This document shows, in pieces, positions 19,446 through 64,000 of a DNA stretch of 64,000 bases. The DNA is taken from sequence record NZ_AP019754.1; one strand, written 5' to 3'. Positions within the stretch are counted from its first letter, which is position 1. Each line of letters starts with the position of its first letter. The stretch is from a plasmid. Made by a program: the position numbers and the translations under genes. The notes beneath the pieces are model-generated. The model saw only the letters and a list, made by a program, of their open reading frames with translations. It was not told the origin of the DNA and made no database searches.

Positions 19446-19519
19446 CGCCGGGAGAGATGCGAGGCCAGTTTAGCCTGTGGTGTAAACGGCCTGGAACAGT
19501 AGCGTTCTGCCCGCCATTT

Positions 19520-20212
19520 TTACGCCCGAATCTGAATCCCTTCGGTGATGATGTGCTGGACACTCTTCACCGTTTGTTCAAAAAACACAGGATCGCTGAG
19601 TGTTTTACCGGTAATCGCCTCAACCTGTACCCCAAAATCTGCGTAATGCTGAGTGGTGGCCCACAGCATAAAAATCAACTGCATCGGATCGATGGGTGCG
19701 ATCAACTCATCTTTAATCCAGCCGCGAATCACGTCCGATTTATCCTCCACCAGCGTTTTCAGGCTGCCGCCAAGCTCCTGTTTCAGCAGCGGTGCGCCCT
19801 GAACCATCTCCAGACAAAATAATCTTGAGGCCTGAGGATGGTCACGGGAGACGCAAAGCTTCAGACGAATATATTCCCGTATTGCTTCCAGAGGATGCTG
19901 ATCGGACTGCAGTGCTTTAAGCGGTGCCAGCCAGATATCCAGCAGCCCTTTGAGCACCGCAATGTATAAATCTTCTTTCGAGGGAAAGTAGTAGAACAGA
20001 TTGGTTTTCGAGACATCCGCGCGTTCAGCAACCTGCTCAAGACGGGTGCCGTGAAAGCCATACAGTGAGAAGAATTCCAGTGCAGCGGCCATGATAGCGC
20101 CACGTTTGGCAGCAACCGCTCGCGAACGTCGCGTCAAAGATTTCGATGGCGTTTTCGCGGCGAGGTTTTCTCCGGCGTCAGAACCCGGGTTTTCGGACAA
20201 TGGCTTCACAAC
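19520..20212 (-). CDS. rutR: TetR-family pyrimidine-utilisation repressor
   Basis: Very close to E. coli RutR throughout (HGTRLEQVAERADVSKTNLFYYFPSKEDLYIAVL…IDPMQLIFMLWATTQHYADF). The start is probably the GTG at 20212. It is divergent from rutA. Confidence 0.85.
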   Translation of the reverse strand, partial: VVKPLSENPGSDAGENLAAKTPSKSLTRRSRAVAAKRGAIMAAALEFFSLYGFHGTRLEQVAERADVSKTNLFYYFPSKEDLYIAVLKGLLDIWLAPLKALQSDQHPLEAIREYIRLKLCVSRDHPQASRLFCLEMVQGAPLLKQELGGSLKTLVEDKSDVIRGWIKDELIAPIDPMQLIFMLWATTQHYADFGVQVEAITGKTLSDPVFFEQTVKSVQHIITEGIQIRA

Positions 20213-20382
20213 ATTTCCCTGATACACACAACAAGGCCAAAAGCATAACAAATAGGCATTAAGGCGACTATCGTCATACGCGTTATTTATAAACACAACT
20301 TGATAACAACCCAGCACAACCAATATTTAACAAAACTGCACCATTTGCGCTCAACTCTGCCTGATTAACGTGCAGCTATTTT

Positions 20383-20413
20383 TGAGTAAATGGTCTGTTT
20401 TAGACCATTTACT
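20383..20413. promoter_or_regulatory. Perfect 13-bp inverted repeat (GAGTAAATGGTCT-N5-AGACCATTTACTC) in the rutR–rutA intergenic region; candidate operator
   Basis: Contains TGGTC/GACCA half-sites like those of the RutR box, although the arrangement and spacing differ from the E. coli consensus. Confidence 0.35.
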
Positions 20414-20469
20414 CCATTATAAATCTACACAATCCCATAACATTCTGTTTTAAATGACTTTTTAAAAAC

Positions 20470-20485
20470 TGGCATCCGCTTTGCA
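20470..20485 (+). promoter_or_regulatory. Sigma-54 (RpoN) promoter upstream of rutA
   Basis: TGGCAT-N5-TTGCA with GG–N10–GC spacing, about 120 nt upstream of the rutA ATG. E. coli rutA is NtrC/sigma-54 dependent. Confidence 0.55.
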
Positions 20486-20607
20486 AATGTCCTTACGTCA
20501 GGAGATTTCAGCACGGTGCAACAGGAACCCGCAGGACGCACTTAAGCCGCGCAGAGATTTTCGCAAGCCCTTGTTGTCGTCCCAATTATTTTCAATCGAG
20601 GTGAGCT

Positions 20608-21699
20608 ATGAAAATCGGTGTCTTTATTCCTATCGGTAACAACGGTTGGCTAATTTCAGAAACTGCGCCGCAGTACAAGCCAACCTTCGAACTGAATAAA
20701 ACCATTGTGCAGAAAGCAGAGCACTACCATTTCGACTTCGCGCTCTCGATGATCAAACTGCGCGGCTTCGGCGGTAAAACGGAATTCTGGGAACACAACA
20801 TGGAGTCATTCACGTTGATGGCCGGTCTGGCCGCCGTAACGTCCCGCATTCAGCTCTACGCCACCGCCGCCACCCTGGTCATGCCACCGGCAATCGTTGC
20901 GCGCATGGCTGCCACAATTGACTCCATCTCCAACGGCCGGTTCGGCGTGAACGTGGTAACCGGCTGGCAGAAACCGGAATACGAACAAATGGGCATGTGG
21001 CCTGGCGATGACTATTTTACCCGCCGCTACGATTACCTGACCGAATATGTCAGCGTACTGCGCGATCTGTGGGGAACAGGGCACTGCACGCTTGACGGCG
21101 AATTTTTCAAAATGGATGACTGTCGCGTCAGTCCACGCCCGCAAAGCGAAATGAAAGTCATCTGCGCCGGACAAAGTGACGCTGGCATGGCGTTTTCCGC
21201 CAAACACGCCGATTTTAACTTCTGCTTTGGCAAAGGCGTCAACACGCCAACCGCTTTTGCACCTACCGCAGCCCGCATGAAAACAGCGGCTGACGCTGAA
21301 AACCGTGACGTGTCCTCTTACGTGTTGTTCATGGTGATTGCCGATGAAACCGACGAGGCCGCGCGCGCCAAATGGGAGCTGTACAAAGCCGGTGCTGATG
21401 CGGAGGCCCTGTCATGGCTCACCGACCAGAGCAGTAAAGATACCCGCTCCGGCAGCGATACCAATGTTCGCCAGATGGCCGATCCCACGTCAGCGGTCAA
21501 CATCAACATGGGGACGCTGGTCGGCTCCTGGGCCAGCGTCGCCAGAATGCTTGATGAGATCGATACGGTTCCCGGTGCGGGCGGCGTATTGCTGACCTTT
21601 GACGATTTCGTCGAAGGCATTGAAAACTTTGGTCGTTACATTCAGCCGTTAATGAAAACGCGCCAGCACATCGGCATTCAGCAGAAAGAGGTCGCATGA
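20608..21699 (+). CDS. rutA: Pyrimidine monooxygenase (FMN-dependent, luciferase-like)
   Basis: 363 aa, first gene of the rut operon. Confidence 0.9.
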
Positions 21700-22448
21700 T
21701 GAACATTGTTGAAAATCAAACCGTGGTTCGCCGCGCGCCCGATAATGCTGGCGAGGAAAGGGTGCTGGCCGCGCGTCCTGAAGCCATTGGTTTCACCCCG
21801 CAGCAGACGGCGCTTATTGTGGTGGATATGCAAAACGCTTACGCCTCGCAGGGCGGTTATCTTGATCTTGCAGGCTTTGACGTGTCTGCCACCGCGCCGG
21901 TCATTGCCAATATCAAAGTGGCGATTGCCGCTGCTCGCGCGGCAGGCATTAAGGTGATTTTTTTCCAGAACGGCTGGGACAATCAGTATGTCGAAGCCGG
22001 GGGGACGGGCTCGCCCAACTTCCATAAATCCAATGCGCTGAAAACAATGCGCAAACGTCCCGAGCTGATGGGCAAACTGCTGGCGAAAGGGGACTGGGAT
22101 TACGATCTGGTCGATGAACTGCAACCCCAGCCGGGCGATATTGTGCTGCCAAAACCACGCTACAGCGGCTTCTTTAATACCCAGTTGGATAGCCTGCTGC
22201 GCAGCTACGGCATTCATCATCTGGTTTTCACCGGCATCGCCACCAACGTGTGCGTCGAATCCACCCTGCGTGACGGCTTCTTTTTGGAATATTTTGGCGT
22301 CGTACTGGAAGACGCGACACACCAGGCGGGCCCCGAGTTTGCGCAAAAAGCCGCGATTTATAACATCGAAACGTTTTTTGGTTGGGTCTCCAGCGTAAGC
22401 CACTTCTGCGACGCGGTGGGTTACAAAACTGAACAAAACGCGGCCTGA
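21696..22448 (+). CDS. rutB: Ureidoacrylate / peroxyureidoacrylate amidohydrolase (isochorismatase family)
   Basis: 250 aa, overlaps the rutA stop, isochorismatase-fold motifs present. Confidence 0.9.
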
Positions 22449-22473
22449 CCGCTTGTGAAAAGGACAATGAACG

Positions 22474-22860
22474 ATGCCTAAACGCGCCATTATTCCAGCC
22501 GGCAGCGGTGTTCCGCTGGCGCCATTTGTTCCCGGTACGCTTGCCGATGGGGTCCTGTACGTTTCCGGTACTTTGCCTTTTGATAAAGACAACAACGTCG
22601 TACATGTGGGCGATGCGGCAGCACAAACCCGCCATGTACTGGAGATCATCAAAAGCGTGATCGAAACCGCAGGCGGCAGCATGGATGACGTCACCATGAA
22701 CTCGATTTTTATCACCGACTGGGCGAATTACGGGGCAGTGAATCAGGTCTATGCGGAGTATTTCCCGGGTGAAAAACCGGCAAGGTTCTGCATTCAGTGT
22801 GGGCTGGTGAAACCGGATGCGTTGATCGAAATCGCATCGATTGCCCACCTTGGCAAATAA
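22474..22860 (+). CDS. rutC: RidA-family aminoacrylate peracid reductase
   Basis: 128 aa with a YjgF/RidA fold, in rut operon position. Confidence 0.85.
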
Positions 22861-22895
22861 TCTGTTCGGTGATGTATTTCATCTGAGGAAACAGT

Positions 22896-23723
22896 ATGTA
22901 TTACAAGGTATTGGGTCAGCAAAACGCTGATGCAGAAACCGTCGTGCTCTCCTCGGGTCTCGGCGGCTCCGGGGGATTCTGGCAGCCTCAGCTGGCGATG
23001 CTCTCGGCGCATTTTCGGGTGGTGGTCTATGACCAGTACGGCACCGGCGCCAGTCAGGGTAGCGTACCCGCCGGTTACCGGATGGAGGATATGGCCGATG
23101 AGCTGGCAGGCTTACTTAACGCGCTGAATATCAGCCGCTGTCATCTGGTCGGTCACGCACTGGGCGGCATTATGGGTCTGCATCTTGCCCTGCGTTATCC
23201 CGCGCTGCTGCAAAGTCTGGTGGTAATTAATGGCTGGACAGTCCTTAACAGCCAGACGCGCCGCTGCTTCGACGTCCGTCGGAACCTGCTGCTTAACAGC
23301 GGCGTAGATGCCTACGTGCAGGCGCAGCCGCTGTTTCTGTACCCGGGTGACTGGCTTTCTGAACATGAAGCTTTCCTGCAGGAAGAGCGCCAGCATCAGG
23401 TGGCGAACTTTCAGGGGATGGAAAACCTGCTGCATCGCCTGCAGGCGCTGATGGACTCCGATCTGACCACCTCGCTCAAAGGCGTCATCGCGCCGACCCT
23501 GGCGTTGAGCGCTAAAGATGATTTGCTGGTGCCCTGGTCCTGTTCAGCCGATCTCGCCTCGCGCCTTCCCCATGGCGAGCACCTGCAAATGGGCTACGGC
23601 GGACATGCCATGAGCGTAACGGACCCCGATACGTTTAACCCGATTTTACTGGACTGGCTGCAGCGGCAGGCTTCGCATCCATCCGGAACACCGTCTGATT
23701 TCATACCTGTGGAGATGCCATGA
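22896..23723 (+). CDS. rutD: Alpha/beta-hydrolase aminoacrylate hydrolase
   Basis: 275 aa with a HALGG nucleophile-elbow variant. Confidence 0.85.
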
Positions 23724-24310
23724 CCGAAGCATTAACCGCCAGCGCGCTGGCCACGTTGTTCACCGAAGCCCGCACCCATAACGGCTGGCTGAATAAACCG
23801 GTAACAGGCGAACAACTGAAAACGATTTACGAACTGGCGCGCATGGGGCCGACCTCGGCGAACTGCAGCCCGGTGCGCATCGTATTTATTCAGAGCCAGG
23901 AAGCGAAACAACAACTGGCGCCGGCACTTTCCAGTGGCAATCTGAAGAAAACGATGACCGCTCCGGTGACGGCGATTATTGCCTGGGATCCGGAATTCTA
24001 TGAGCTGCTGCCTGAACTGTTTCCGTCCGGCGATGCCCGTTCATGGTTCACCTCCAGCCCACAGCTGGCACAGGATACCGCGTTCCGCAACAGCAGTTTA
24101 CAGGCTGCGTATCTGATTATGGCCTGTCGCGCGATCGGCCTGGATACCGGACCGATGTCCGGTTTCGACAATGCCAAAGTTGATGAAACCTTTCTGGCGC
24201 AGGAAGGCTGGAAATCGAATTTTCTGATTAACATTGGTTACGGCGACAGCAGCAAAGTCTATCCGCGCGCACCGCGCCTGGACTTTGACCGCGCCTGTCG
24301 CGTGCTGTAA
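23720..24310 (+). CDS. rutE: Nitroreductase-like malonic semialdehyde reductase
   Basis: 196 aa, overlaps the rutD stop. Confidence 0.85.
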
Positions 24311-24322
24311 GCATCACCGATC

Positions 24323-24895
24323 ATGACTGAGGACACGAGCATGCAATCAACCCTGAACGCCACACTGCCCGCGACCGACATGCCCCTTGCTGAAAAAGAG
24401 GCTGCCGTTGAGAAACAGGAATACCGCAATGCCATGGCGCGCCTCGGCTCTGCCGTCAACATCATCACCACTGACGGCCCCGGCGGTCGGGCAGGTTTCA
24501 CCGCCTCTGCTGTGTGCAGCGTCACCGATACGCCACCGACACTGCTGGTGTGCCTGAACCGTTCTGCGTCGGTACATCCGGCGTTTATACAAAATCAGGT
24601 GCTGTGCGTAAACACGCTGGCCGACAGCCACGAATCACTTTCTAATTTATTCGGCGGAAAAACGCCGATGGAACAACGCTTCGACGCCGCCGAATGGACA
24701 GATCTCGCCACCGGCTCCCCGATCCTCACTAACGCGCTGGTGTCATTTGACTGCAAGGTCACGCAGATCACCCGGGTCGGTACCCACGATATTATGTTTT
24801 GTGAAGTTGTTGCACTCCGTTGCAACGATGACTGCCACGGACTGGCGTATTTCGACCGACGCTATCATCCGCTGATGCGTCAGATAGCCTGTTAA
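24323..24895 (+). CDS. rutF: Flavin reductase (the true start may be an internal Met)
   Basis: [37 protein letters not shown] matches E. coli RutF. There is a ~20-aa N-terminal extension relative to E. coli. Confidence 0.85.
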
Positions 24896-24928
24896 CTCAA
24901 TCCGCATTCAACTTAGTAAGGATCGTAC

Positions 24929-26275
24929 ATGGCACATTCCTGGTTTCCGCAATGGCGTAAAAGAGAAGGTAATCTGGATGGCGCGGTGATCGCGCCGGAT
25001 GAACGGCTACCGTTTGGCGCGACGGTGATCATGGGACTGCAACACACGGTGGCGATGTTTGGTGCCACGGTACTCATGCCATTGCTGATGGGGTTTGACG
25101 CCAATATGGCGATCCTGATGTCGGGCATCGGCACGCTGCTGTTCTTCCTGGTCGTAGGCGGGCGCGTGCCGAGTTATCTCGGTTCCAGTGCTGCATTTGT
25201 CGGGTTAGTGATTGCCGTGACCGGCTACAGCGGCCACGGCACGAACCCGAATATCGGCGTCGCGCTGGGCGGGATTATCGCCTGTGGCCTGATTTACATG
25301 CTGATCGGTTTTGTCGTCATGGCGGTCGGCACGCGCTGGATTGAGCGCCTGATGCCGCCGGTGGTGACCGGCGCGGTAGTGATGGCGATTGGACTCAATC
25401 TGGCGCCGATTGCCATAAACAGCGTATCCGCTTCATCGTTTGACAGCTGGATGGCGGTGATGACGGTGCTGTGTATCGGATCGGTGGCGGTGTTTACACG
25501 CGGTCTGGTACAGCGACTGTTACTGTTGCTGGGTCTGGTGGCGGCGTACCTGATTTATATGGCGATCACCAACGGCCTCGGGCTGGGCACGCCGGTGAAT
25601 TTCAGCGCCGTGGCGCAGGCGCCCTGGTTCGGCGTGCCCACCGTCACTACGCCGGTATTCAGCACGCACGCTATGCTGATGATTGCGCCGGTGGCGGTGA
25701 TCCTGGTTGCGGAAAACCTTGGCCATATTAAAGCCGTGGCGGGGATGACCGGTAAAAATCTCGATCCCTACATGGGCCGCGCCTTTATCGGGGATGGCCT
25801 GGCGACCTTGCTTTCGGCTTCGGCGGGCGGCACCGGCGTGACAACCTATGCCGAAAATATCGGCGTCATGGCCGTCACTAAAATTTACTCCACGCTGATT
25901 TTTGTCGCCGCCGCAATCATGGCCATTGTGTTGGGTTTTTCGCCTAAATTTGGTGCCTTGATCCACACCATTCCTGGCCCGGTGCTCGGTGGAGCATCCA
26001 TCGTGGTATTTGGCTTGATTGCCGTAGCTGGCGCCCGCATTTGGGTACAAAACCACGTTGATTTGGGCCTGAATGGCAATCTCATCATGGTGGCAGTTAC
26101 GCTGGTACTGGGCGCGGGCAACTTCACCCTGAGCCTGGGCGGCTTCAGCATGGGCGGCATCGGCACCGCGACCTTTGGGGCGATTTTACTCAATGCTTTC
26201 CTGAGCCGCAGCAAAATGGCAAAGACGCCGGCTGAGATTGAGGCAGCCACAGAAGCGGCGCTGAGAGAGCCGTAA
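24929..26275 (+). CDS. rutG: NCS2-family pyrimidine permease
   Basis: 448 aa, polytopic membrane protein, last gene of the operon. Confidence 0.85.
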   Translation: MAHSWFPQWRKREGNLDGAVIAPDERLPFGATVIMGLQHTVAMFGATVLMPLLMGFDANMAILMSGIGTLLFFLVVGGRVPSYLGSSAAFVGLVIAVTGYSGHGTNPNIGVALGGIIACGLIYMLIGFVVMAVGTRWIERLMPPVVTGAVVMAIGLNLAPIAINSVSASSFDSWMAVMTVLCIGSVAVFTRGLVQRLLLLLGLVAAYLIYMAITNGLGLGTPVNFSAVAQAPWFGVPTVTTPVFSTHAMLMIAPVAVILVAENLGHIKAVAGMTGKNLDPYMGRAFIGDGLATLLSASAGGTGVTTYAENIGVMAVTKIYSTLIFVAAAIMAIVLGFSPKFGALIHTIPGPVLGGASIVVFGLIAVAGARIWVQNHVDLGLNGNLIMVAVTLVLGAGNFTLSLGGFSMGGIGTATFGAILLNAFLSRSKMAKTPAEIEAATEAALREP

Positions 26276-26315
26276 CCTTTTATTGCTTCGTCTGTCGTCA
26301 GTGGGTGTTAAGGGT

Positions 26316-54847: not shown

Positions 54848-55149
54848 GCATGCCCCGATGTGAGGGGGTAAGCAGGCAACGCTACGTGAATTCTGTATAA
54901 CCCGCAGGGGTTCTGTGCGCCAGTTTTCACGTAGCGCGCCCGGTGATTACGGGCTTCAGGTCCAGAGGGGACGCAGGTGAGGTGCCGGTGCGTAACCGGG
55001 TACGTGTCGGGATGTATTATTTAACATAATTAGTATTATGCGCACTTTAATGTAACGGCTAAATTCAGATGTCCGCCTCTGGCTGTATTGAGATGTCCGC
55101 ATTATCGTCCTTTTTCCAGGGTTTCCCGGCTGAGGACGCAACTGATGAC

Positions 55150-55315
55150 GGCTTAGGATTCGGAGTGCTGAGAGCATGAACAGACGTTTGGCCCCCATAC
55201 GTCTTGCCAGCCAACTGCTAAGCGGTATGACCAACATCAGGCCCAGGATATAGACATTACTTATCCATGCCAACTGGCTAACGGGTAGTTGGAGTACTTG
55301 CCTCCCCTGTGACAT
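55150..55315 (-). pseudogene. Fragment of an MFS (DHA-type) transporter gene
   Basis: The 55 aa VSQLAWISNVYILGLMLVIPLSSWLARRMGAKRLFMLSALRIL match the TM1–loop–TM2/3 region and the G-x-L-a-D-r-x-G-r-k motif of MFS drug exporters. Sequence beyond that is non-protein-like. Confidence 0.35.
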
Positions 55316-55681
55316 CTCTCACCCCCTGCCAAAACATTTCCGTTTAGTACTGGAAAAATACTCTCTGTATCCGGCCAGACATTGCTGATAATTTGTCCAG
55401 ACTCTGGTTTAACATAGCTGACAAACGCTTAACGGACGCATCAGAAAACGAACAGCATCAACGTAAGGCTTCGTGCCACGAGGGGCCGTTTCTGACATTT
55501 CAAAAAGCGACACGACTAACAGCAAACGAATACCGCTCATCTTCCTTTTCTGGCAACCGTTTCGACGTGAAGAAAGAACGTATTACTGAAACGCGACGCT
55601 CTGCCCTTTTGCTTACTAAGTATTCATTGCCCGGATGTTCAGGCGACCGTAAAAATTAACGACACTGACGAGTAGGGAAAA

Positions 55682-56827
55682 ATGATGAATAAAACGATTC
55701 TGGCGCTAGCCGCCGTTGCAAGTGCTTCGGCCATTGTGCCGCTGATGGCTCAGGCATCTTACGCGTATGTGGGAACCTATAATCCCAATGGCGAAGGGGT
55801 TTATCGATTTATCCTCAATGCGCAGGGTGAACTGTCGGGAAAAACATTGGTGAGTCAACTGCCCAACCAGGCACAGATGGTGGCGTCAGCGGATGGTAAA
55901 CATCTTTATGTGGCGAGTGAGACCGAGAAAGGTAGCATCACCGCTTATCAGATTGGTACGGACGGTTCGCTCACGGCATTAAATCAGGTCGACACGCAAG
56001 GCAAAGGACCGGTGTACCTGTCCCTGACACCCGATCAGCGTTACCTGATGGTCGCAAATTATGTCAGCGGCAGTATTACAGTGTTTGCGGTAACGCCAGA
56101 AGGCAAGCTGAGTGAGGCTGTCGATCATCATCAGGACAGCGGCCCGGCTGGCGCAGGCAAACCGGCCGCAGCGGTAGACGGCAGCTTTGCCATCAGCGAT
56201 CACAATGGTCCGCATGCACATATGGTCGCCAGCGATCCCACGGGCCAGTTTGTTTACTCGACGGATTTGGGGCTGGACCGCATTTACCAATACCACCTGA
56301 ATAAAGACGGTACGCTGACGCCCGGCAAACCCGCATGGATAAACGCCTCGTCTGCCGGTGCAGGCCCCCGCCATTTCGTTCTTAGCGCTGAGGGTCATGC
56401 GCTCTGGTTAGTGAATGAAGAAGCCTCCACGCTCACACATTACCTCATTAATCCGCAAAGCGGTGCTTTGCAGGAAAAGGCCACGGTTTCTACGCTGCCT
56501 TCCGGTTATAAAGGCACCAGTTTTGCAGCCGGGTTAGTCATTGATAAGGGCGGGAAAAATCTTTACGTCGCCAACCGTCTGCATGACAGCATTGCGCACT
56601 TTGAGGTCAATGCTAACGGCACACTGACGCATAAAGATGATGTGTGGACGCGCGGGGATTACCCCCGAACGCTGACATTATCCCCTGATGGCAGCATGAT
56701 TTACGTGATGAATCAGCGTAGCGATAACATCACCAGCTTCAGGGTGGATAAAGCGAGTGGTGCCATCAGCTTTACCGGGAACTATGTTGCCGTAGGCGCG
56801 CCTTCACAGATGGTTATTGTTCCCTGA
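55682..56827 (+). CDS. Lactonase-family 7-bladed beta-propeller protein (Pgl/YbhE-like) with an N-terminal signal peptide
   Basis: 381 aa with a cleavable signal peptide (MMNKTILALAAVASASAIVPLMAQA). The repeated propeller blades and overall pattern resemble 6-phosphogluconolactonase/3-carboxymuconate-cyclase-like lactonases. Confidence 0.7.
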   Translation: MMNKTILALAAVASASAIVPLMAQASYAYVGTYNPNGEGVYRFILNAQGELSGKTLVSQLPNQAQMVASADGKHLYVASETEKGSITAYQIGTDGSLTALNQVDTQGKGPVYLSLTPDQRYLMVANYVSGSITVFAVTPEGKLSEAVDHHQDSGPAGAGKPAAAVDGSFAISDHNGPHAHMVASDPTGQFVYSTDLGLDRIYQYHLNKDGTLTPGKPAWINASSAGAGPRHFVLSAEGHALWLVNEEASTLTHYLINPQSGALQEKATVSTLPSGYKGTSFAAGLVIDKGGKNLYVANRLHDSIAHFEVNANGTLTHKDDVWTRGDYPRTLTLSPDGSMIYVMNQRSDNITSFRVDKASGAISFTGNYVAVGAPSQMVIVP

Positions 56828-56995: not shown

Positions 56996-59900
56996 TCAGG
57001 TGTTATCCTCCACAATCACCGCAACCCGCTGTCCGGCGCGCACGGCACTGCCTGGCTGTACGTTAACCTGCTGGATGATCCCATCGCAGGGTGCCAGCAA
57101 CGGAATCTCCATTTTCATGGATTCCAGTACCACCAGAACATCCCCCGCCTGAACCCGACTTCCCACCGTGGTTTGCACTTGCCAAAGGTTGCCGGAAACC
57201 GGGCTTTCGACACCCTGCTCGCCCTGCTGTAGTGGTGCATCACCGCCCTCTTCTGCCACGTTCTCCTGGCTGTCGAAATGGGCCTGACCACTGGCGATCC
57301 AGCGATCGCGTTCCGCATTGAACGCCTGTTGCTGGTGGTCACGAAACGCCGCGATGCTTTGCGCCTCATGAGCGAGAAACTGCTGATAATCACTCAACCG
57401 CAGCGTACTGGGCTCAATGCGCAGCGGATAACGCCCCAGCGGGAAATCGCGGCGGATTTGCACCAGTTCCTCGGCGGATACAGGGTAGAACCGCAGTTGA
57501 TCAAAGAAGCGCAGCAGCCAGGGTTTCCCCGCAAAATCAGCAACCTCTCGATAGCGATTCCACATCTGAAGCGTGCGCCCCACAAACTGATAGCCGCCAG
57601 GTCCTTCCATGCCGTAAACGCAGAGGTAAGCGCCGCCGATACCCACCGAGTTCTCTGCCGTCCAGGTGCGCGCCGGGTTGTATTTTGTGGTGACCAGGCG
57701 ATGGCGCGGATCCAGCGGTGTCGCAACCGGCGCCCCCAGATAGACATCGCCCAGCCCCATAACCAGATAGCTGGCCTCAAACACCGTCTCCCAGACCGCC
57801 TGTTCGTCAGGCAGATCGTTAATGCGGCGAATGAATTCAAGGTTACTGGGGCACCACGGTGCATCAGGGCGTACCGTCGTCATGTACTTTTCAATCGCCT
57901 GGCGACAGGCGGGATCGTCCCAGGAAAGCGGCAGATGTACTACGCGAGTTGGCACCTGCAGATCATCACTCAGGCAAACCCTGAGCCACTCGCCGCGTAC
58001 CCAGTCCAGCAGCGCGTCATGGGTGAGGATTTCAGGCTGAAAATGGATCTGCAACGAACGAATCCCGGGCGTGATATCAATCACCCCGTCTTTTGCATGC
58101 GCTTCCAGCGCCTGCATCAGGGCATGAATGCGAAAACGCAGAACCAGATCCAGCTCCGGCTCCCCGGCTTCGAGTAGCAGATGCGTATCGCCAGAAAGTC
58201 GCGCGACCAGGCGCTTATCGGCCTCACCGCAGGTCATCACGATCGGCGAGGTCAGCGGCGCAGGTTGCCAGGCTGTCGCCTGGCCACAGAGCGTTGCCAG
58301 CTCCTGGCCTCGCGCTTTAGCCAACTGGCGCGCGGTGGTTAAATCCACCGAGGTAAAGCGCACTTTATCACCGGCTTTCAACTGCCCTAACTGCCAGAGA
58401 TCGGCTTCGATGACTGTGACCGGACAAACGAATCCCCCGAGGCTGGGTCCATCCGGGCCCAGAATCACCGGCATATCGCCGGTAAAATCAACCGCACCTA
58501 CCGCGTACGGATTGTCGTGAATGTTTGACGGATGCAGTCCGGCTTCGCCCCCGCTGTCTCGGCTCCAGATGGGCTTGGGCCCAATCAGGCGGACGCCCGT
58601 GCGGCTGGAGTTAAAATGCACTTCCCATTCTGTGGCAAAAAAAGTGGCGATATAGTCCGGCGCGAAGAACTCCGGCGCACCGTGTGGACCATAAATTACC
58701 CGTAGGGTGCGGATCTGCGGGAGATCCGTGCGCAATGCCTCAGGAAGTGCCACGCCAGCTTCCGTTGCTGCCTGTGGGGCCAGGTGCAGCACATCGCCGC
58801 TACGCAGTGCGCGTCCGGCGTGGCCGCCAAACTGGCCAAGCGTAAAGGTGCTTTTACTGCCTAAATACGTTGGCACCTGAATGCCGCCGCTCAGGCAGAG
58901 ATAGCTTCGCACGCCCGCCCCACTCACAGCACCCAGCTTTAACGTCGCCCCGGCGGGAATGGTAAAAACACAATCCATCGGCACGGGCTGGCCATCCAGG
59001 GTAGCGCTCAGTGGTGCACCGCAGATGACGGCCTGGATGGCGGTATTGAATTTCAGAGTGGGTCCGGTGAGGGCCATTTCCAGTGCGGCTTCCCCCTCGT
59101 CATTGCCCAGCAGCCGATTGCCTGAACGCAGGGCGCGGTCGTCCATCGGCCCCGATGGCGGTACGCCGACCGCCCAGTAGCCCAGACGGCCCGGATAATC
59201 CTGCACGCTGGTTTGCGTACCGGCGCCTAGCACCTCAACCGTCGCTGCCTGATAGCTCAGCTGTTCCAGACAACGGGTCCAGGGTTCTCCCTGAACAAAG
59301 GGCGCAAACGCTAAAATTTGCTGCAGATAGAGGCGGTTGGTTTCAACACCGTATAAACGCGTTTCTGCCAGCGCCTGCGCCAGTGTGGCAATGGCCTCCG
59401 GGCGGCTGGGCCGCCAGGCGATCGTTTTCGCCAGCAGCGGATCAAAAAAGGGCGGCACTTCGCAACCGGCTTCAATCCAGTGATCAATGCGCAGGCGAGC
59501 ATCCTGTTGGTCGGGAAAGGCAACGTCTGTCAGCAGGCCCGGTGAAGGCTGAAACTGCCGTCCCGGATCTTCCGCATAAATGCGTGCCTGGATAGCATGG
59601 CCTTGTGGCGCAAGCCCGGCAGCCAGCTCGCGCAGGGGCGGCAAGGTGTCCGCAGCCAGTTCAATCATCCATTTCACCAGGTCAACGCCCCAGACCTGTT
59701 CTGTTACGCCATGCTCGACCTGAAGGCGAGTGTTGACCTCCAGGAAGTAAAATTGTTGGTTCAGGCTGTCATAGACAAACTCCACGGTGCCCGCGCTGCG
59801 ATAGTTCACTGCTTTACCCAGCGCAACTGCCGCCTCGCAGAGCGCCTGTGCCATGCCTTCAGGCAAATTGGGGGCAGGTGTTTCTTCGATGACCTTCTGG

Positions 59901-60601
59901 TTACGCCGCTGCACCGAGCAGTCACGCACGCCCAGCGCGATAACGTCTCCTTGCCCGTCACCAAAGATCTGCACCTCAAGATGACGTGCGCGTTCGATAT
60001 AGTTCTCGAGAAACACGCCGGCATCACTAAAGTTGTTCTGCCCCAGCCGCTGCACGGTATCAAACGCTTCCGTCAGTTCATGCGAATCGCGACAAACGCG
60101 CATGCCAATCCCGCCGCCACCCGCCGTACTTTTCAGCATCACCGGATAACCAACGGTCTCGGCGACGCGGCAGGCTTCGGCGGCATCGGCCAGTAACTCG
60201 CTGCCTTCCAGCAAGGGCACACCTTCAGCTTTCGCCAGAGCACGGGCCGTGTGCTTCAGACCAAAAGTCCGCAACTGCTGTGGCGTTGGGCCAACAAAAA
60301 TCAGCCCTGCGGCCTCGCAGGCCTCAGCGAACCCGGCGTTTTCAGAGAGAAAACCGTAGCCCGGGTGAATCGCCTGTGCACCGCTTTGCTGCGCTGCGGC
60401 AATAATTTTTTCAGCGGCCAGATACGTTTGTGCCGCCGGGCCGTCGCCAAGGGACAACGCTTCATCGGCATCACGAATATGCAGGCTGCCCAGATCGGCC
60501 TCGGCATAGACAGCCACCCCCTTGACCTGCATGGCGCGCAGGGTGCGTAAGATGCGGCAGGCGATCGCACCGCGGTTAGCAATCAGTAAGGTATCAAACA
60601 T
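56996..60601 (-). CDS. Urea carboxylase-family biotin-dependent carboxylase (urea or guanidine carboxylase), 1201 aa
   Basis: The N-terminus is a biotin carboxylase (MFDTLLIANRGAIACRILRTLR…). The centre carries KipA/KipI-like carboxyltransferase (allophanate-hydrolase-subunit-like) domains. The C-terminus is a biotinyl-lysine domain (VLESMKMEIPL). Confidence 0.85.
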   Translation of the reverse strand: MFDTLLIANRGAIACRILRTLRAMQVKGVAVYAEADLGSLHIRDADEALSLGDGPAAQTYLAAEKIIAAAQQSGAQAIHPGYGFLSENAGFAEACEAAGLIFVGPTPQQLRTFGLKHTARALAKAEGVPLLEGSELLADAAEACRVAETVGYPVMLKSTAGGGGIGMRVCRDSHELTEAFDTVQRLGQNNFSDAGVFLENYIERARHLEVQIFGDGQGDVIALGVRDCSVQRRNQKVIEETPAPNLPEGMAQALCEAAVALGKAVNYRSAGTVEFVYDSLNQQFYFLEVNTRLQVEHGVTEQVWGVDLVKWMIELAADTLPPLRELAAGLAPQGHAIQARIYAEDPGRQFQPSPGLLTDVAFPDQQDARLRIDHWIEAGCEVPPFFDPLLAKTIAWRPSRPEAIATLAQALAETRLYGVETNRLYLQQILAFAPFVQGEPWTRCLEQLSYQAATVEVLGAGTQTSVQDYPGRLGYWAVGVPPSGPMDDRALRSGNRLLGNDEGEAALEMALTGPTLKFNTAIQAVICGAPLSATLDGQPVPMDCVFTIPAGATLKLGAVSGAGVRSYLCLSGGIQVPTYLGSKSTFTLGQFGGHAGRALRSGDVLHLAPQAATEAGVALPEALRTDLPQIRTLRVIYGPHGAPEFFAPDYIATFFATEWEVHFNSSRTGVRLIGPKPIWSRDSGGEAGLHPSNIHDNPYAVGAVDFTGDMPVILGPDGPSLGGFVCPVTVIEADLWQLGQLKAGDKVRFTSVDLTTARQLAKARGQELATLCGQATAWQPAPLTSPIVMTCGEADKRLVARLSGDTHLLLEAGEPELDLVLRFRIHALMQALEAHAKDGVIDITPGIRSLQIHFQPEILTHDALLDWVRGEWLRVCLSDDLQVPTRVVHLPLSWDDPACRQAIEKYMTTVRPDAPWCPSNLEFIRRINDLPDEQAVWETVFEASYLVMGLGDVYLGAPVATPLDPRHRLVTTKYNPARTWTAENSVGIGGAYLCVYGMEGPGGYQFVGRTLQMWNRYREVADFAGKPWLLRFFDQLRFYPVSAEELVQIRRDFPLGRYPLRIEPSTLRLSDYQQFLAHEAQSIAAFRDHQQQAFNAERDRWIASGQAHFDSQENVAEEGGDAPLQQGEQGVESPVSGNLWQVQTTVGSRVQAGDVLVVLESMKMEIPLLAPCDGIIQQVNVQPGSAVRAGQRVAVIVEDNT

Positions 60602-60712
60602 AAGCGGAACTCTCAGGAAAGCGGGTCGTCCCGCAGAAAGTCGACATGTCCCCTGGGGCCGTCCCCGGGGCTTCTCCTTTTCAGGCGTGCGTATTGTTTA
60701 GTCGCACCAGGC

Positions 60713-61348
60713 TCAGTTCCATACCAATACCTCGGCGGGCGTGGGATTCCAGCCGTTACAGGGGTTATTCAGCTGCGGACAGTTTGAGATTAAGACCGCC
60801 GCATTACACTCGGCGCGCAGTTCAACATATTTGCCGGCGGCGGAAATACCGTCTTCAAAGGTCAGTCCACCCTGCGGAGTGACGGGAACGTTCATAAAAA
60901 AGTTGATGTTGGCGCCGATATCGCGTTTATGCAGGCGACCGTCATGCAGGCAGGCACAAAGAAAATTATCCCGGCAGCTGTGCATATAGCGCTTGTCGTG
61001 AGCATAACGTACCGTGTTACTTTCCTGCGCGCAGGCACCGCCCAACGTATCGTGGCGGCCACAGGTATCGGCGACAATGGTCAGCAGCGGATTGCCCATA
61101 TTCGAGTAAAGTACGCTGCCGGTGGTCAGGTAAGCATTACCCTGACGGCGCAGCGTACGCTGGGGATCGTAACGCTCGCGCGGATTATCTGCGTTGTAGA
61201 ACAGCGTATCGATCGCCTGATTCCCTTCCAGGTCGAGCAGACGCAATGTTTGCCCTTGTTTGACCTCAAACAGCCAGGGTTCGCCCGCCGGAATCACATG
61301 ACGGTAAACCGCATCCTCTGGGCGGCGGTCGCTGGAAATAATCATCAT
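60713..61348 (-). CDS. DUF1989 urea-carboxylase-associated protein (UAAP; CgdB/CgdA-like)
   Basis: ~211 aa from the internal Met (GGAG upstream). It is conserved adjacent to urea-carboxylase-family genes. Confidence 0.7.
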
Positions 61349-61358
61349 CGCTGACTCC

Positions 61359-62087
61359 TTACAGGGCAAAAAGTTGAGTGTTCTGTATTGCGCGCTGATT
61401 TTCATCGCGGATGAACAGCGCTTCGGTGGTAGCCTGTGCGTCATCGGCCTGATACCAGCTCAGCTGGATGGGACGCGGTGCATAGTCAGGGGCAGGATCC
61501 ATTGGATGGGGGAGCGCGGTCAGGACGATCAGCACGTCCATTGGGGCAAACAGCTCAACAACATCCCCTGCGCGGCTATGTTCGGTATCGAAGCGGAAGC
61601 GGCCATCTTCATCGACGGTGACTTTGCTAAAGAAGTTAACGACCATGAGCAGATCTTCAAGACCCAAATCCCATTTGCCCATCTCGACCAGCAGATTATC
61701 GACTCCATTGCGGTAAAACCCATTCCGCAGCTCCTGATAGCGCCCTGCGCCATATTTTTCGCGCGTTTCCGCCGCGTTAAGTACGCCACCAAACGGGTCG
61801 TGCCAGCCACAACTGTCCGCCACGATCCCGGCGAGTACGCGGCCCATATCGGAATAAAAACAGTGGCCGGTAGTGAGCCGGGCCGTATGCTGGCCCTTCA
61901 GCGTATCCGGTAGATTAAGGCGTTCACTTTTCTCATGCGGATTGAGCATCATCATGCTGACATTCGCGCCGCCATCAATATCGGTCAGGCGCAGGATGTG
62001 CCCTTTGCGCAGAATGAATGAGGTGTGCGCCCCGCCGGGAAGCCGCTCTTCGCGCAGGCTGGGCGCTGAGTGAAAACGTGCCGTCAT
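61359..62087 (-). CDS. DUF1989 urea-carboxylase-associated protein (second paralogue)
   Basis: 242 aa and paralogous to the downstream gene, with shared motifs (…NLPD/DTL…TTG…YS.MG…). It overlaps the upstream ABC ATPase stop. Confidence 0.7.
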
Positions 62088-62866
62088 TGCTGTCTCCTTA
62101 ATGCATAAACGTTGTCTTTACTGTCTGTCATCAGCTGTGCCATTCGCGCCTCATTCAGCGGAATGTCATAGGTGATACGCGCGCCCCAGGCATGAGGGGC
62201 TTGGGGATCGTGGCGGACTTTGTCAAATACCAGTAGCCGTGTCCCCAGGTTGAAGCCTTCAGTAAGATCGTGGGTGACCATAAAGACCGTCATTCGGGTT
62301 TCACTCCACAGTTGAAGCAGCAGCGCGTGCATGTCTTTGCGGATACCGGGATCCAGTGCGCCAAAGGGCTCATCCAACAACAGCACTCGCGGTTGCATGA
62401 TAAAAGCCTGGGCAATTGCCAGCCTTTGCTGCATTCCGCCGGAGAGCTGTGCCGGATATTTATCCAGCGCATTTCCCAGCCCTACTTTGTCCAGCATCTG
62501 TCGTGCCTGCTGCCGGGCCGCGCGTTTTCGGGCGCCGAACAGGCGACCCGACAAGGGCGAAGCAGGCAGTTCGAGCCCTATCGCGACGTTATCGAGTACA
62601 TTGAGATGGGGAAACACGGAATAGCGTTGAAACACGACGCCGCGGCTGCGGTCGGGTTCTGTCGCCAGTGCCTTACCATCCAGGGTGATCTCTCCCCGGG
62701 TGGGTTTTTCCTGCCCCAGCAGCAGGCGCAAAAACGTCGACTTCCCGCAGCCCGATGCACCGACCATAGAGCAGAACTCGCCCGCCTTAACCTGCAAATT
62801 GATGCGTTCCAGCACCACGTGGTCGCCGTACTCCTGCCAGATATTGTTGATACTGATAAAACTCAT
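62084..62866 (-). CDS. ABC transporter ATP-binding protein (NitT/TauT nitrate/sulfonate/bicarbonate family)
   Basis: Walker A (GASGCGKST), LSGGMQQRLAIAQAF and Walker B are present. The start is the ATG forming an ATGA overlap with the permease stop. Confidence 0.85.
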   Translation of the reverse strand: MSFISINNIWQEYGDHVVLERINLQVKAGEFCSMVGASGCGKSTFLRLLLGQEKPTRGEITLDGKALATEPDRSRGVVFQRYSVFPHLNVLDNVAIGLELPASPLSGRLFGARKRAARQQARQMLDKVGLGNALDKYPAQLSGGMQQRLAIAQAFIMQPRVLLLDEPFGALDPGIRKDMHALLLQLWSETRMTVFMVTHDLTEGFNLGTRLLVFDKVRHDPQAPHAWGARITYDIPLNEARMAQLMTDSKDNVYALRRQQ

Positions 62867-63678
62867 TCCCGGCCTCCTTCCGCCCATGGGAAACAGGCGT
62901 TGTGCAGCTTGCGCAGGCCCAGATCCATCAGCCAGGCCAGCAGCGTGATCCAGATGACATAGGGGATAATCACATCCATCGCCATGTAGCGACGCACCAG
63001 GAAAATGCGATAGCCCAGCCCGGCGGTCGCCGAAATCGCTTCGGAGGAAATTAAAAACAGCCAGGCCGATCCCAGAAGCAGCCGTACCGAGGTGATAAGC
63101 CGTGATAACAGCTGCGGCAGCACGACCCGCAGCACGACCGTCCAGCTATTGGCTCCCAGGGTTTGCGCTTTGATTAACAGTTCCGCCGGAATTTCCCGTG
63201 CCCGCTGTTCAAGATCGCGTGCCAGCATCGGCGTAATGCCAATGACGATGAGCATGACCTTCGACAGCTCATCCAGGCCGAAAACAATAAACAGCACGGG
63301 CAGAATCGCCAGCGGCGGCACCATTGAGACAACCGTCATCAGGGGTGACAGTGCGGCGCGGGACATCGGAAAAACGCCCGCGGCAATGCCGAGGCACAGA
63401 CCAATCAGCGAGGAGAGCGCCAGCCCCATGAGCAGACGGCTCAGGCTGATAAACGTATCGGCCCACAGCAGGTATTCACCACTGCGCTTATCTGGCGTGA
63501 AGGCCATCCGATCAATCGCCTCAATCATCTGCGACAGTCCGGGCAGCAGTTTGTCCTGCGGATTGGCCTCCAGCCGCACCGCTGATCCGATAAACCAGGC
63601 GGCGATGATCAGCACGAAGGGCAACAGCATTAGCGTCAGGCGCATGCCCTGGCGGGGATAGCGGTTGATGTAGCGCAT
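62863..63678 (-). CDS. ABC transporter permease (NitT/TauT family)
   Basis: 271 aa, 6 TM segments, binding-protein-dependent permease signature. Confidence 0.85.
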   Translation of the reverse strand: MRYINRYPRQGMRLTLMLLPFVLIIAAWFIGSAVRLEANPQDKLLPGLSQMIEAIDRMAFTPDKRSGEYLLWADTFISLSRLLMGLALSSLIGLCLGIAAGVFPMSRAALSPLMTVVSMVPPLAILPVLFIVFGLDELSKVMLIVIGITPMLARDLEQRAREIPAELLIKAQTLGANSWTVVLRVVLPQLLSRLITSVRLLLGSAWLFLISSEAISATAGLGYRIFLVRRYMAMDVIIPYVIWITLLAWLMDLGLRKLHNACFPWAEGGRE

Positions 63679-63702
63679 GACATGAACTCCCGTGCTCAGT
63701 GG

Positions 63703-64000
63703 TTACAACTTGCCCGCAGCGGCCAGCTTAAGATAGCTGTCGTCAAAGCGCAGTTTGCTGTTAGCACTATCGCCAACGGTGACGTTGCCCGGGAATGTCA
63801 TGCCGATAAAATCAGCGCTCTGTGCGCCCTGACCCAGCAGACCTTTGTCAAACGAGAAGTTCGCCACGCGTTGCATGGTCTTTGGCAGATCAGGCGAAGA
63901 AATAAAGGCCAATGTCTCAGCAGGCGTCCAGAACAGATGCGTTGTTTTAAGCTGAGCCTGATAGCCCGCGAGGTCGGTACCGGAATCTGCCGCCATTGCA
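63703..64000 (-). CDS. NMT1/THI5-like periplasmic substrate-binding protein of the same ABC system; only the C-terminal part lies in the window
   Basis: The minus-strand frame is open to the window edge. The C-terminal 97 aa resemble NitT/TauT-family binding proteins. Confidence 0.6.
   Translation of the reverse strand, partial: AMAADSGTDLAGYQAQLKTTHLFWTPAETLAFISSPDLPKTMQRVANFSFDKGLLGQGAQSADFIGMTFPGNVTVGDSANSKLRFDDSYLKLAAAGKL

Follow-up and report, generated by a model that had tools for sequence, protein, structure and literature searches.

A probable guanidine-assimilation operon without an allophanate hydrolase gene on an LPP-1-type megaplasmid of Pantoea ananatis

We analyzed a stretch of 64,000 nucleotides (nt) from plasmid record NZ_AP019754.1, hereafter the window. 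From position 56996 to its end, the window is occupied by a minus-strand gene cluster that encodes an ATP-binding cassette (ABC) importer, two DUF1989 paralogs, and a large carboxylase of the urea carboxylase family (Table 1). In all likelihood, the LPP-1 megaplasmid of Pantoea ananatis carries here an operon for guanidine assimilation, and the window holds its 3′ six-sevenths. The window is collinear with plasmid NZ_CP014208 (99.75% identity over 49.7 kb), and the operon region is 99.4% identical to LPP-1-type megaplasmids of P. ananatis. RefSeq labels every gene of the operon as a urea gene. An initial annotation, made from the letters of the sequence, had listed an ABC importer, two DUF1989 paralogs, and a 1201-amino-acid (aa) enzyme of the urea carboxylase family, and this content was confirmed with Pfam and NCBIfam models. 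It had also called the neighboring lactonase gene divergent, which is wrong: the gene lies on the plus strand and converges on the carboxylase gene. The promoter and any riboswitch had been placed past the window end; this is correct for a guanidine-I riboswitch and a sigma-54 motif, but a guanidine-II riboswitch lies inside the window.

Table 1. Coordinates of the operon genes, the guanidine-II element and the adjacent lactonase gene in the window.
Feature	Position	Strand	Remarks
Lactonase, 7-bladed	55682-56827	plus	Neighbor of the carboxylase gene, convergent (tail to tail)
Carboxylase, 1201 aa	56996..60601	minus	TIGR02712, 1824 bits vs cutoff 1304; annotated "urea carboxylase", uca
Putative expression platform	60602..60620	minus	UUUCCUGAGAGUUCCGCUU; GAGAG Shine-Dalgarno 8 nt before carboxylase AUG; near-invariant in three Pantoea species
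Guanidine-II (mini-ykkC) aptamer	60621..60670	minus	Rfam RF01068, 40.4 bits vs gathering score 32
DUF1989 paralog 2, UAAP2, 211 aa	60713..61348	minus	TIGR03424, 331 bits vs cutoff 285; start as in RefSeq
DUF1989 paralog 1, UAAP1	61359..62087	minus	TIGR03425, 310 bits vs cutoff 206
ABC transporter ATPase, 260 aa	62084..62866	minus	Pfam ABC_tran; start overlaps permease stop
ABC transporter permease, 271 aa	62863..63678	minus	Pfam BPD_transp_1; identical protein on P. ananatis contigs
Substrate-binding protein gene, 3′ end	63703..64000	minus	C-terminal 98 codons; matches TIGR03427 ("ABC_peri_uca") positions 231-328 of 328; NitT/TauT-type

The gene for the substrate-binding protein runs past the window end, and in near-identical contigs its full-length product has 352 aa. 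For the ATPase gene, the longest open reading frame (ORF) reaches position 62887, and the gene calls of the near-identical contigs and of RefSeq start at 62866. A 243-aa ORF that extends UAAP2 to position 61444 is an over-extension. The carboxylase has a complete set of domains, comprising biotin carboxylase, carboxyltransferase (CT_A_B and CT_C_D), and biotinyl domains, with an MKM biotinylation motif at residue 1162. The solved structure closest to it is that of the Kluyveromyces lactis enzyme (1075 bits).

The two DUF1989 proteins both score above equivalog cutoffs, each with a different best model, and their genes are adjacent to each other and to the carboxylase gene. They are probably the subunits of a heteromeric carboxyguanidine deiminase, CgdAB, whose products would be allophanate and ammonium; the UAAP1 and UAAP2 families are carboxyguanidine deiminases according to the title of Schneider et al. 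2020, as cited in PMC12186494. A search of the PDB for a solved CgdAB structure returned none, the closest entries being distant DUF1989 proteins from structural genomics and trimethylamine N-oxide (TMAO) demethylase. Among four Pantoea lineages (P. ananatis, P. stewartii, P. agglomerans, and Pantoea sp. Nvir), the ratio of nonsynonymous to synonymous substitution rates (dN/dS) indicates purifying selection, with values of 0.07–0.15 for UAAP1, 0.02–0.09 for UAAP2, and 0.07–0.10 for the carboxylase.

Guanidine carboxylases have been delineated by a conserved Asp at the position of K. lactis residue 1584 combined with Asp, rather than the urea-type Asn, at position 1330 (Palatinszky et al., PMC11410670, Methods), and the same Asp/Asn rule is given in a review (PMC12186494). 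We mapped both positions by aligning the window enzyme with HMMER to the full-length urea amidolyase of K. lactis (5I8I, natural numbering). In the window enzyme, Asp705 (GAVDFTGD) is found opposite K. lactis Asn1330 (GAINFTGD) and Asp952 (GLGDVYLG) opposite Asp1584, so that the carboxyltransferase alignment proposed in the initial annotation yields the guanidine signature and not the urea one. Asp occupies position 1330 in all nine riboswitch-linked Pantoea carboxylases fetched at the time of the comparison and in a Rhizobium one. Asn occupies it in every readable enterobacterial paralog linked to an allophanate hydrolase (AH) gene (76/76): the copy on the P. ananatis chromosome, its orthologs in P. 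agglomerans 33.1 and on Salmonella pHCM1, and those of 73 more loci. DUF1989 genes or riboswitch motifs are found near none of these 76 loci. The chromosomal paralog of P. ananatis and the window carboxylase are 51% identical. A urea system would be recognized by Asn at K. lactis position 1330, by an AH next to or fused with the carboxylase, and by linkage to a urea transporter; the window instead has Asp705, no AH, and an importer of the NitT/TauT type, not the Urt type. The assignment of the window enzyme as a guanidine carboxylase, predicted to prefer guanidine over urea, is strongly supported by these features.

The guanidine-II aptamer is the sole match above a gathering score in an Rfam scan of the whole window (E = 1.3e-4; 1.8e-5 in a 9-kb scan). 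It is located in the 111-nt gap between the UAAP2 and carboxylase genes, with its 3′ end 19 nt before the carboxylase AUG. The features that define the class are all present, namely two GC-rich hairpins with ACGR loops (ACGG and ACGA), a short linker, and a start codon directly downstream: P1, CCCCGGGG-ACGG-CCCC(A)GGGG, is followed by a 16-nt linker and by P2, GCGGG-ACGA-CCCGC. The Rfam model recovers the element at the corresponding site of P. agglomerans (43.7 bits) and P. stewartii (35.1 bits); for Pantoea sp. Nvir, it is recognized by alignment only. In the alignment of the four lineages, the ACGR loops are invariant and P1 has undergone one compensatory GC-to-AU change, whereas the flanking intergenic DNA diverges. 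In a single-sequence fold of the P. ananatis element, the linker pairs with the Shine-Dalgarno sequence and the AUG, with a z-score of only −0.8; a helix of this kind in the guanidine-II switch is a conjecture.

Several further observations concern this element. P. agglomerans has an insertion of ~57 nt just upstream of it. P. ananatis AJ13355 (L007 15600-15720) carries a natural C-to-U substitution in the 3′ arm of P1, which turns a G-C pair into a G-U pair and keeps the stem. Apparent plus-strand "terminators" at 60651-60674 were rejected, being merely the complement of hairpin P1.

For the sequence upstream of the window end, we used six P. ananatis genome contigs that are 99.1–99.4% identical across the window end and extend past it; window position 64000 corresponds to position 9679 of contig L001, in reverse orientation. 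Scanning beyond position 64000 with RF00442, as the initial annotation had proposed, revealed a guanidine-I riboswitch in the three contigs scanned (93 bits versus 63). It is located 817–915 nt past the window end and 56 nt upstream of the ATG of the binding-protein gene. A match to the conserved core of this riboswitch also came from the three remaining contigs and from plasmid pEA320, which brings the total to seven near-identical P. ananatis sequences. At the same position, it is present in P. agglomerans and P. stewartii according to Rfam and in Pantoea sp. Nvir by alignment only. Folding reveals a hairpin followed by UUUUUU. The 5′ arm of this hairpin shares sequence with the conserved GGGAG at the 3′ end of the aptamer, an overlap consistent with the usual competition between terminator and aptamer in an ON switch. 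A simple terminator scan returned nothing after the guanidine-I aptamer, the hairpin and U-tract being outside its loop and stem rules.

A perfect sigma-54 −24/−12 motif, CTGGCACGTCAATTGCA, lies ~40 nt upstream of the guanidine-I aptamer on the operon strand (L001 8709-8724, ~955–970 nt past the window end). It is the sole strict sigma-54 match in 20.8 kb, where 0.07 would be expected. The GG and GC elements of the motif are invariant in the four Pantoea lineages, whereas their surroundings diverge, and ~80 nt upstream of the motif there is a conserved, NtrC-like GCAC-N7-GTGC dyad. This arrangement suggests AND-type control of the operon by nitrogen limitation and guanidine.

The absence of an AH gene after the carboxylase gene, noted in the initial annotation, was confirmed with tblastn: three AH queries detected no AH or amidase-signature homolog in the window or in the fetched flanks of the four Pantoea lineages. 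In each of these lineages, the operon ends at the carboxylase, so that the AH gene that belongs to a complete operon is missing. The downstream neighbor differs from lineage to lineage, being the lactonase gene in P. ananatis, a short-chain dehydrogenase/reductase (SDR) gene in P. stewartii, a LysR gene in P. agglomerans, and malT in Pantoea sp. Nvir. On P. agglomerans plasmid pAJ2b_A, a gene of the 2-oxoglutarate (2OG)-Fe(II) oxygenase family is located two genes downstream of the carboxylase gene (L008 6108-6881).

Among the plasmids in PLSDB, about 76 Pantoea plasmids carry the operon, and an atzF ortholog occurs in only four Pantoea records. None of these four is from P. ananatis, and on this ground an AH elsewhere on LPP-1 was rejected. 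A decaying remnant left after the loss of AH was rejected as well, given the intact ORFs and dN/dS values of 0.02–0.15. The atzF gene of a Raoultella plasmid was dropped as a canonical comparator, as it is part of a different, carboxylase-free cluster.

We also scanned species-representative genomes with a Pantoea AH and took the best 80 AH loci. This search for an AH elsewhere in the genome, likewise proposed in the initial annotation, located atzF in P. ananatis LMG 2665 (L040 8001-9794), beside an Asn-type urea carboxylase gene, and on the P. stewartii chromosome. Contig L040 is assigned to the chromosome because it also holds the thr leader. The order of genes at the LMG 2665 locus is atzF (597 aa), uca (1205 aa, Asn type), gntR, urtA, and urtB onward (urtABCDE), and the locus is free of riboswitches. 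In line with this locus, Strope et al. 2011 (PMC3073912) credit another strain, P. ananatis LMG 20103, with one urea amidolyase of the long form and one further urea carboxylase, and with no urease. That long form (~1800 aa) was described as unique in bacteria (PMC3073912); in LMG 2665, the atzF ORF is separated from the uca ORF by 6 nt (L040 9794-9801), and the fusion in LMG 20103 may be strain-specific or an artifact of annotation or sequencing.

The chromosomal atzF gene of LMG 2665 is itself preceded by a strict sigma-54 motif, 41 nt before its ATG (L040 7945-7960), which is correctly placed and the sole strict match in the locus, and such a motif is present at a fixed distance in 45 of the 80 enterobacterial atzF loci (L012-L091). 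These motifs point to expression of both clusters under nitrogen limitation, and AH would thus be at hand whenever the AH-less guanidine operon is on.

We consider it highly probable that the plasmid operon serves the import and breakdown of guanidine as a nitrogen source, with AtzF acting in trans. A guanidine carboxylase/CgdAB pathway had been put forward in the initial annotation, which left the choice between urea and guanidine as substrate open. The pathway is supported by both riboswitch classes, by Asp705 and Asp952, and by the lack of an adjacent AH, and, to the extent that sequence can settle it, the substrate is guanidine.

Under this scenario, transcription would start at the sigma-54-type promoter ~0.95 kb past the window end, in dependence on nitrogen limitation and NtrC. 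In the leader, the 3′ half of the guanidine-I aptamer would compete with the intrinsic terminator, both of which are present in the near-identical strains, and guanidine would cause read-through, as expected for the family. A single mRNA would then encode the ABC importer, the two CgdAB subunits, and the carboxylase. Translation of the carboxylase would be gated a second time by the guanidine-II aptamer 19 nt upstream of its AUG. By analogy with other members of its class, this would be an ON switch in which ligand-induced loop-loop docking of the two ACGR hairpins frees the Shine-Dalgarno sequence. Imported guanidine, together with ATP and bicarbonate, would be converted to carboxyguanidine by the Asp705-type enzyme, and CgdAB would turn carboxyguanidine into allophanate and ammonium, as their families predict. 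Allophanate would finally be hydrolyzed to 2 NH3 and 2 CO2 by AtzF, which the atzF-uca-gntR-urtABCDE urea cluster of the chromosome would supply in trans.

More tentatively, and with slightly less than even confidence, we propose that the pathway is split over two replicons and two control logics. The LPP-1 operon would have lost AH permanently or never had it and would depend on chromosomal AtzF. Allophanate would be the junction of the Asp-type (guanidine) and Asn-type (urea) routes, which would be coordinated solely through shared sigma-54/NtrC control. If this is the case, Pantoea lineages that lack the chromosomal cluster, possibly including P. agglomerans, would run an AH-less pathway that ends in allophanate or urea.

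Several points weigh against guanidine assimilation with AtzF in trans. Substrate preference, riboswitch switching, and sigma-54 dependence are all predictions from sequence. The guanidine-I riboswitch and the promoter are known from other strains, the window itself ending inside the binding-protein gene. The evidence for co-occurrence of the plasmid operon and chromosomal atzF comes from the species as a whole and, through the literature, from LMG 20103, rather than from the strain that supplied the window. As no guanidine riboswitch accompanies the chromosomal AH cluster, guanidine may not induce it. Finally, a helix sequestering the Shine-Dalgarno sequence of the carboxylase gene is absent from the four-species consensus fold.

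The alternative that survives best, although we regard it as unlikely, is a truncated pathway without any AH. One ammonium would be released, and allophanate would decarboxylate spontaneously to urea, which would be excreted or would feed into the separate route of urea carboxylase and AH; the main role of the operon would then be detoxification or a partial scavenging of nitrogen. Such a pathway would account for the AH-less operon with a different downstream gene in each of the four Pantoea lineages and for the rarity of atzF on Pantoea plasmids (only four of the about 76 that carry the operon), but it would devote a costly, ATP-consuming importer and carboxylase to one of three nitrogens. 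The species representative of P. agglomerans is outside the best 80 AH loci and P. ananatis is reported to lack urease (PMC3073912), both of which fit truncation; P. ananatis and P. stewartii, however, have a chromosomal AH with a nitrogen-type sigma-54 promoter, and all published pathways end with AH (PMC11410670, PMC12186494).

Considerably less probable is that the operon is the downstream half of a longer route, the physiological substrate of which would be a substituted guanidine (methylguanidine or guanylurea, for example) that enzymes encoded elsewhere first turn into guanidine. Extensions of this kind have been published for Vreelandella boliviensis (mgdH/mgdL, PMC12508155) and Pseudomonas mendocina (guuH, PMC9800807). 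Vreelandella MgdH is a 2OG/Fe(II) dioxygenase, and P. agglomerans has its 2OG-Fe(II) oxygenase gene near the carboxylase gene, but no gene for an extension of this kind is found in or beside the P. ananatis operon, and both riboswitch classes are described as answering to free guanidine. This possibility supplements guanidine assimilation without contradicting it. The least probable explanation, a bona fide urea carboxylase cluster with an unlinked AH and with the DUF1989 proteins as accessory "urea amidolyase associated" factors, draws on family names that score above cutoff (TIGR02712, TIGR03424/5, and TIGR03427, "putative urea ABC transporter") and with which RefSeq agrees, but these names are older than the reassignment in the literature (PMC12186494), and the explanation appears largely refuted by the guanidine-specific classes of both riboswitches, by Asp in place of Asn as the discriminating residue, and by the separate Asn-type urea carboxylase, linked to atzF and to the urtABCDE urea transporter, that P. 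ananatis already has.

The guanidine operon shares its stretch of the plasmid with other genes for nitrogen scavenging. Collinearity with NZ_CP014208 places the following at window positions ~19500-26300 and nearby: rutR/rutABCDFG, an operon for pyrimidine nitrogen; dgcA/dgcN, accompanied by peptidases and a peptide ABC transporter; and an ABC transporter for amino acids. The plasmid also bears the flagellin gene, fliD, and two genes for chemoreceptors. The stretch between a chemotaxis receptor gene and the lactonase gene (window ~54850-55680) varies among strains. At this stretch, AJ13355 has a ~6-kb insert (L007 4495-10029) that encodes an integrase, a RelA/SpoT-domain protein, a large hypothetical protein, and a fragment of a metallo-beta-lactamase (MBL)-fold protein. 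The alignments of contigs L003 and L006 break at the same insert point, and the window keeps only a 119-aa ORF (54956-55315) and low-GC DNA there.

The practical value of these findings is a correction of annotation, in that the riboswitches and Asp705 argue for renaming the RefSeq urea genes of the operon as guanidine genes. Plants are reported to produce guanidine, as stated in the review PMC12186494 with reference to homoarginine-6-hydroxylases, so that guanidine scavenging would make ecological sense for a plant-associated genus in which this plasmid is universal. P. ananatis moreover provides a natural pair of enzymes for the one-residue specificity rule, namely one carboxylase of the Asp type and one of the Asn type within the same species, with apparently a single AH for both. 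A literature search found no paper linking Pantoea to guanidine metabolism, and the locus thus seems experimentally uncharacterized. The current picture of guanidine metabolism is unchanged by the operon.

We compared the Pantoea operon with known guanidine and urea systems. Erwinia belongs to the same order (Enterobacterales) and family (Erwiniaceae) as Pantoea. In published enterobacterial operons, Erwinia among them (2021 work, as described in the review PMC12186494), a guanidine-I riboswitch governs the importer and deiminase genes and a guanidine-II riboswitch directly downstream governs the carboxylase gene, a layout shared with Pantoea. In the review's description, an AH gene follows the carboxylase gene under guanidine-II control, whereas the Pantoea operon ends at the carboxylase.

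Plasmid pTA1_2 of Rhizobium ruizarguesonis (L094) shares with Pantoea the order of genes for the substrate-binding protein, permease, ATPase, UAAP1, UAAP2, and uca. Its carboxylase likewise has Asp at the two signature positions, and its operon carries guanidine-I at the 5′ end and a guanidine-II element farther inside. The Rhizobium operon differs in that atzF directly follows uca and guanidine-II precedes UAAP1; its carboxylase is 55% identical to the window enzyme. Given this seven-gene order with atzF last, the Pantoea version corresponds to the canonical operon minus its last gene. The Rhizobium guanidine-II element (L094 13578-13627, minus strand) lies where the annotated ATPase ORF has a 3′ tail that is not conserved, which reflects either an over-extended ORF or an overlap of riboswitch and coding sequence.

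The gca/mgdH operon of Vreelandella boliviensis (PMC12508155) is likewise preceded by a class I riboswitch and has a further, internal one of class II; it also contains genes for an ABC importer as well as cgdA/B and gca. In contrast to the Pantoea operon, it includes atzF and the methylguanidine demethylation genes mgdH and mgdL. With the guanidine carboxylase/CgdAB/AH pathway of Pseudomonas syringae (Schneider et al. 2020, as presented in PMC11410670 and PMC12186494), the Pantoea system shares the Asp signature and, as we assume, the three-step chemistry. The P. syringae pathway is biochemically characterized and, in those accounts, has AH in the described set, whereas the Pantoea system is known from sequence alone.

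The 1200-aa domain architecture of the window enzyme is also that of K. lactis DUR1,2 (PDB 3VA7, 5I8I) and of the carboxylases in enterobacterial atzF-uca-gntR-urtABCDE clusters. These urea systems differ from the Pantoea operon in having Asn at position 1330, a fused or adjacent AH, and linkage to a urea transporter, and in lacking DUF1989 genes and riboswitches. Other bacteria are already known from the literature to have this layout of importer, CgdAB, and carboxylase genes, in which a class I riboswitch leads and a class II riboswitch lies inside the operon. The only variant feature is that the operon lacks AH, and in this form it is conserved across Pantoea under purifying selection.

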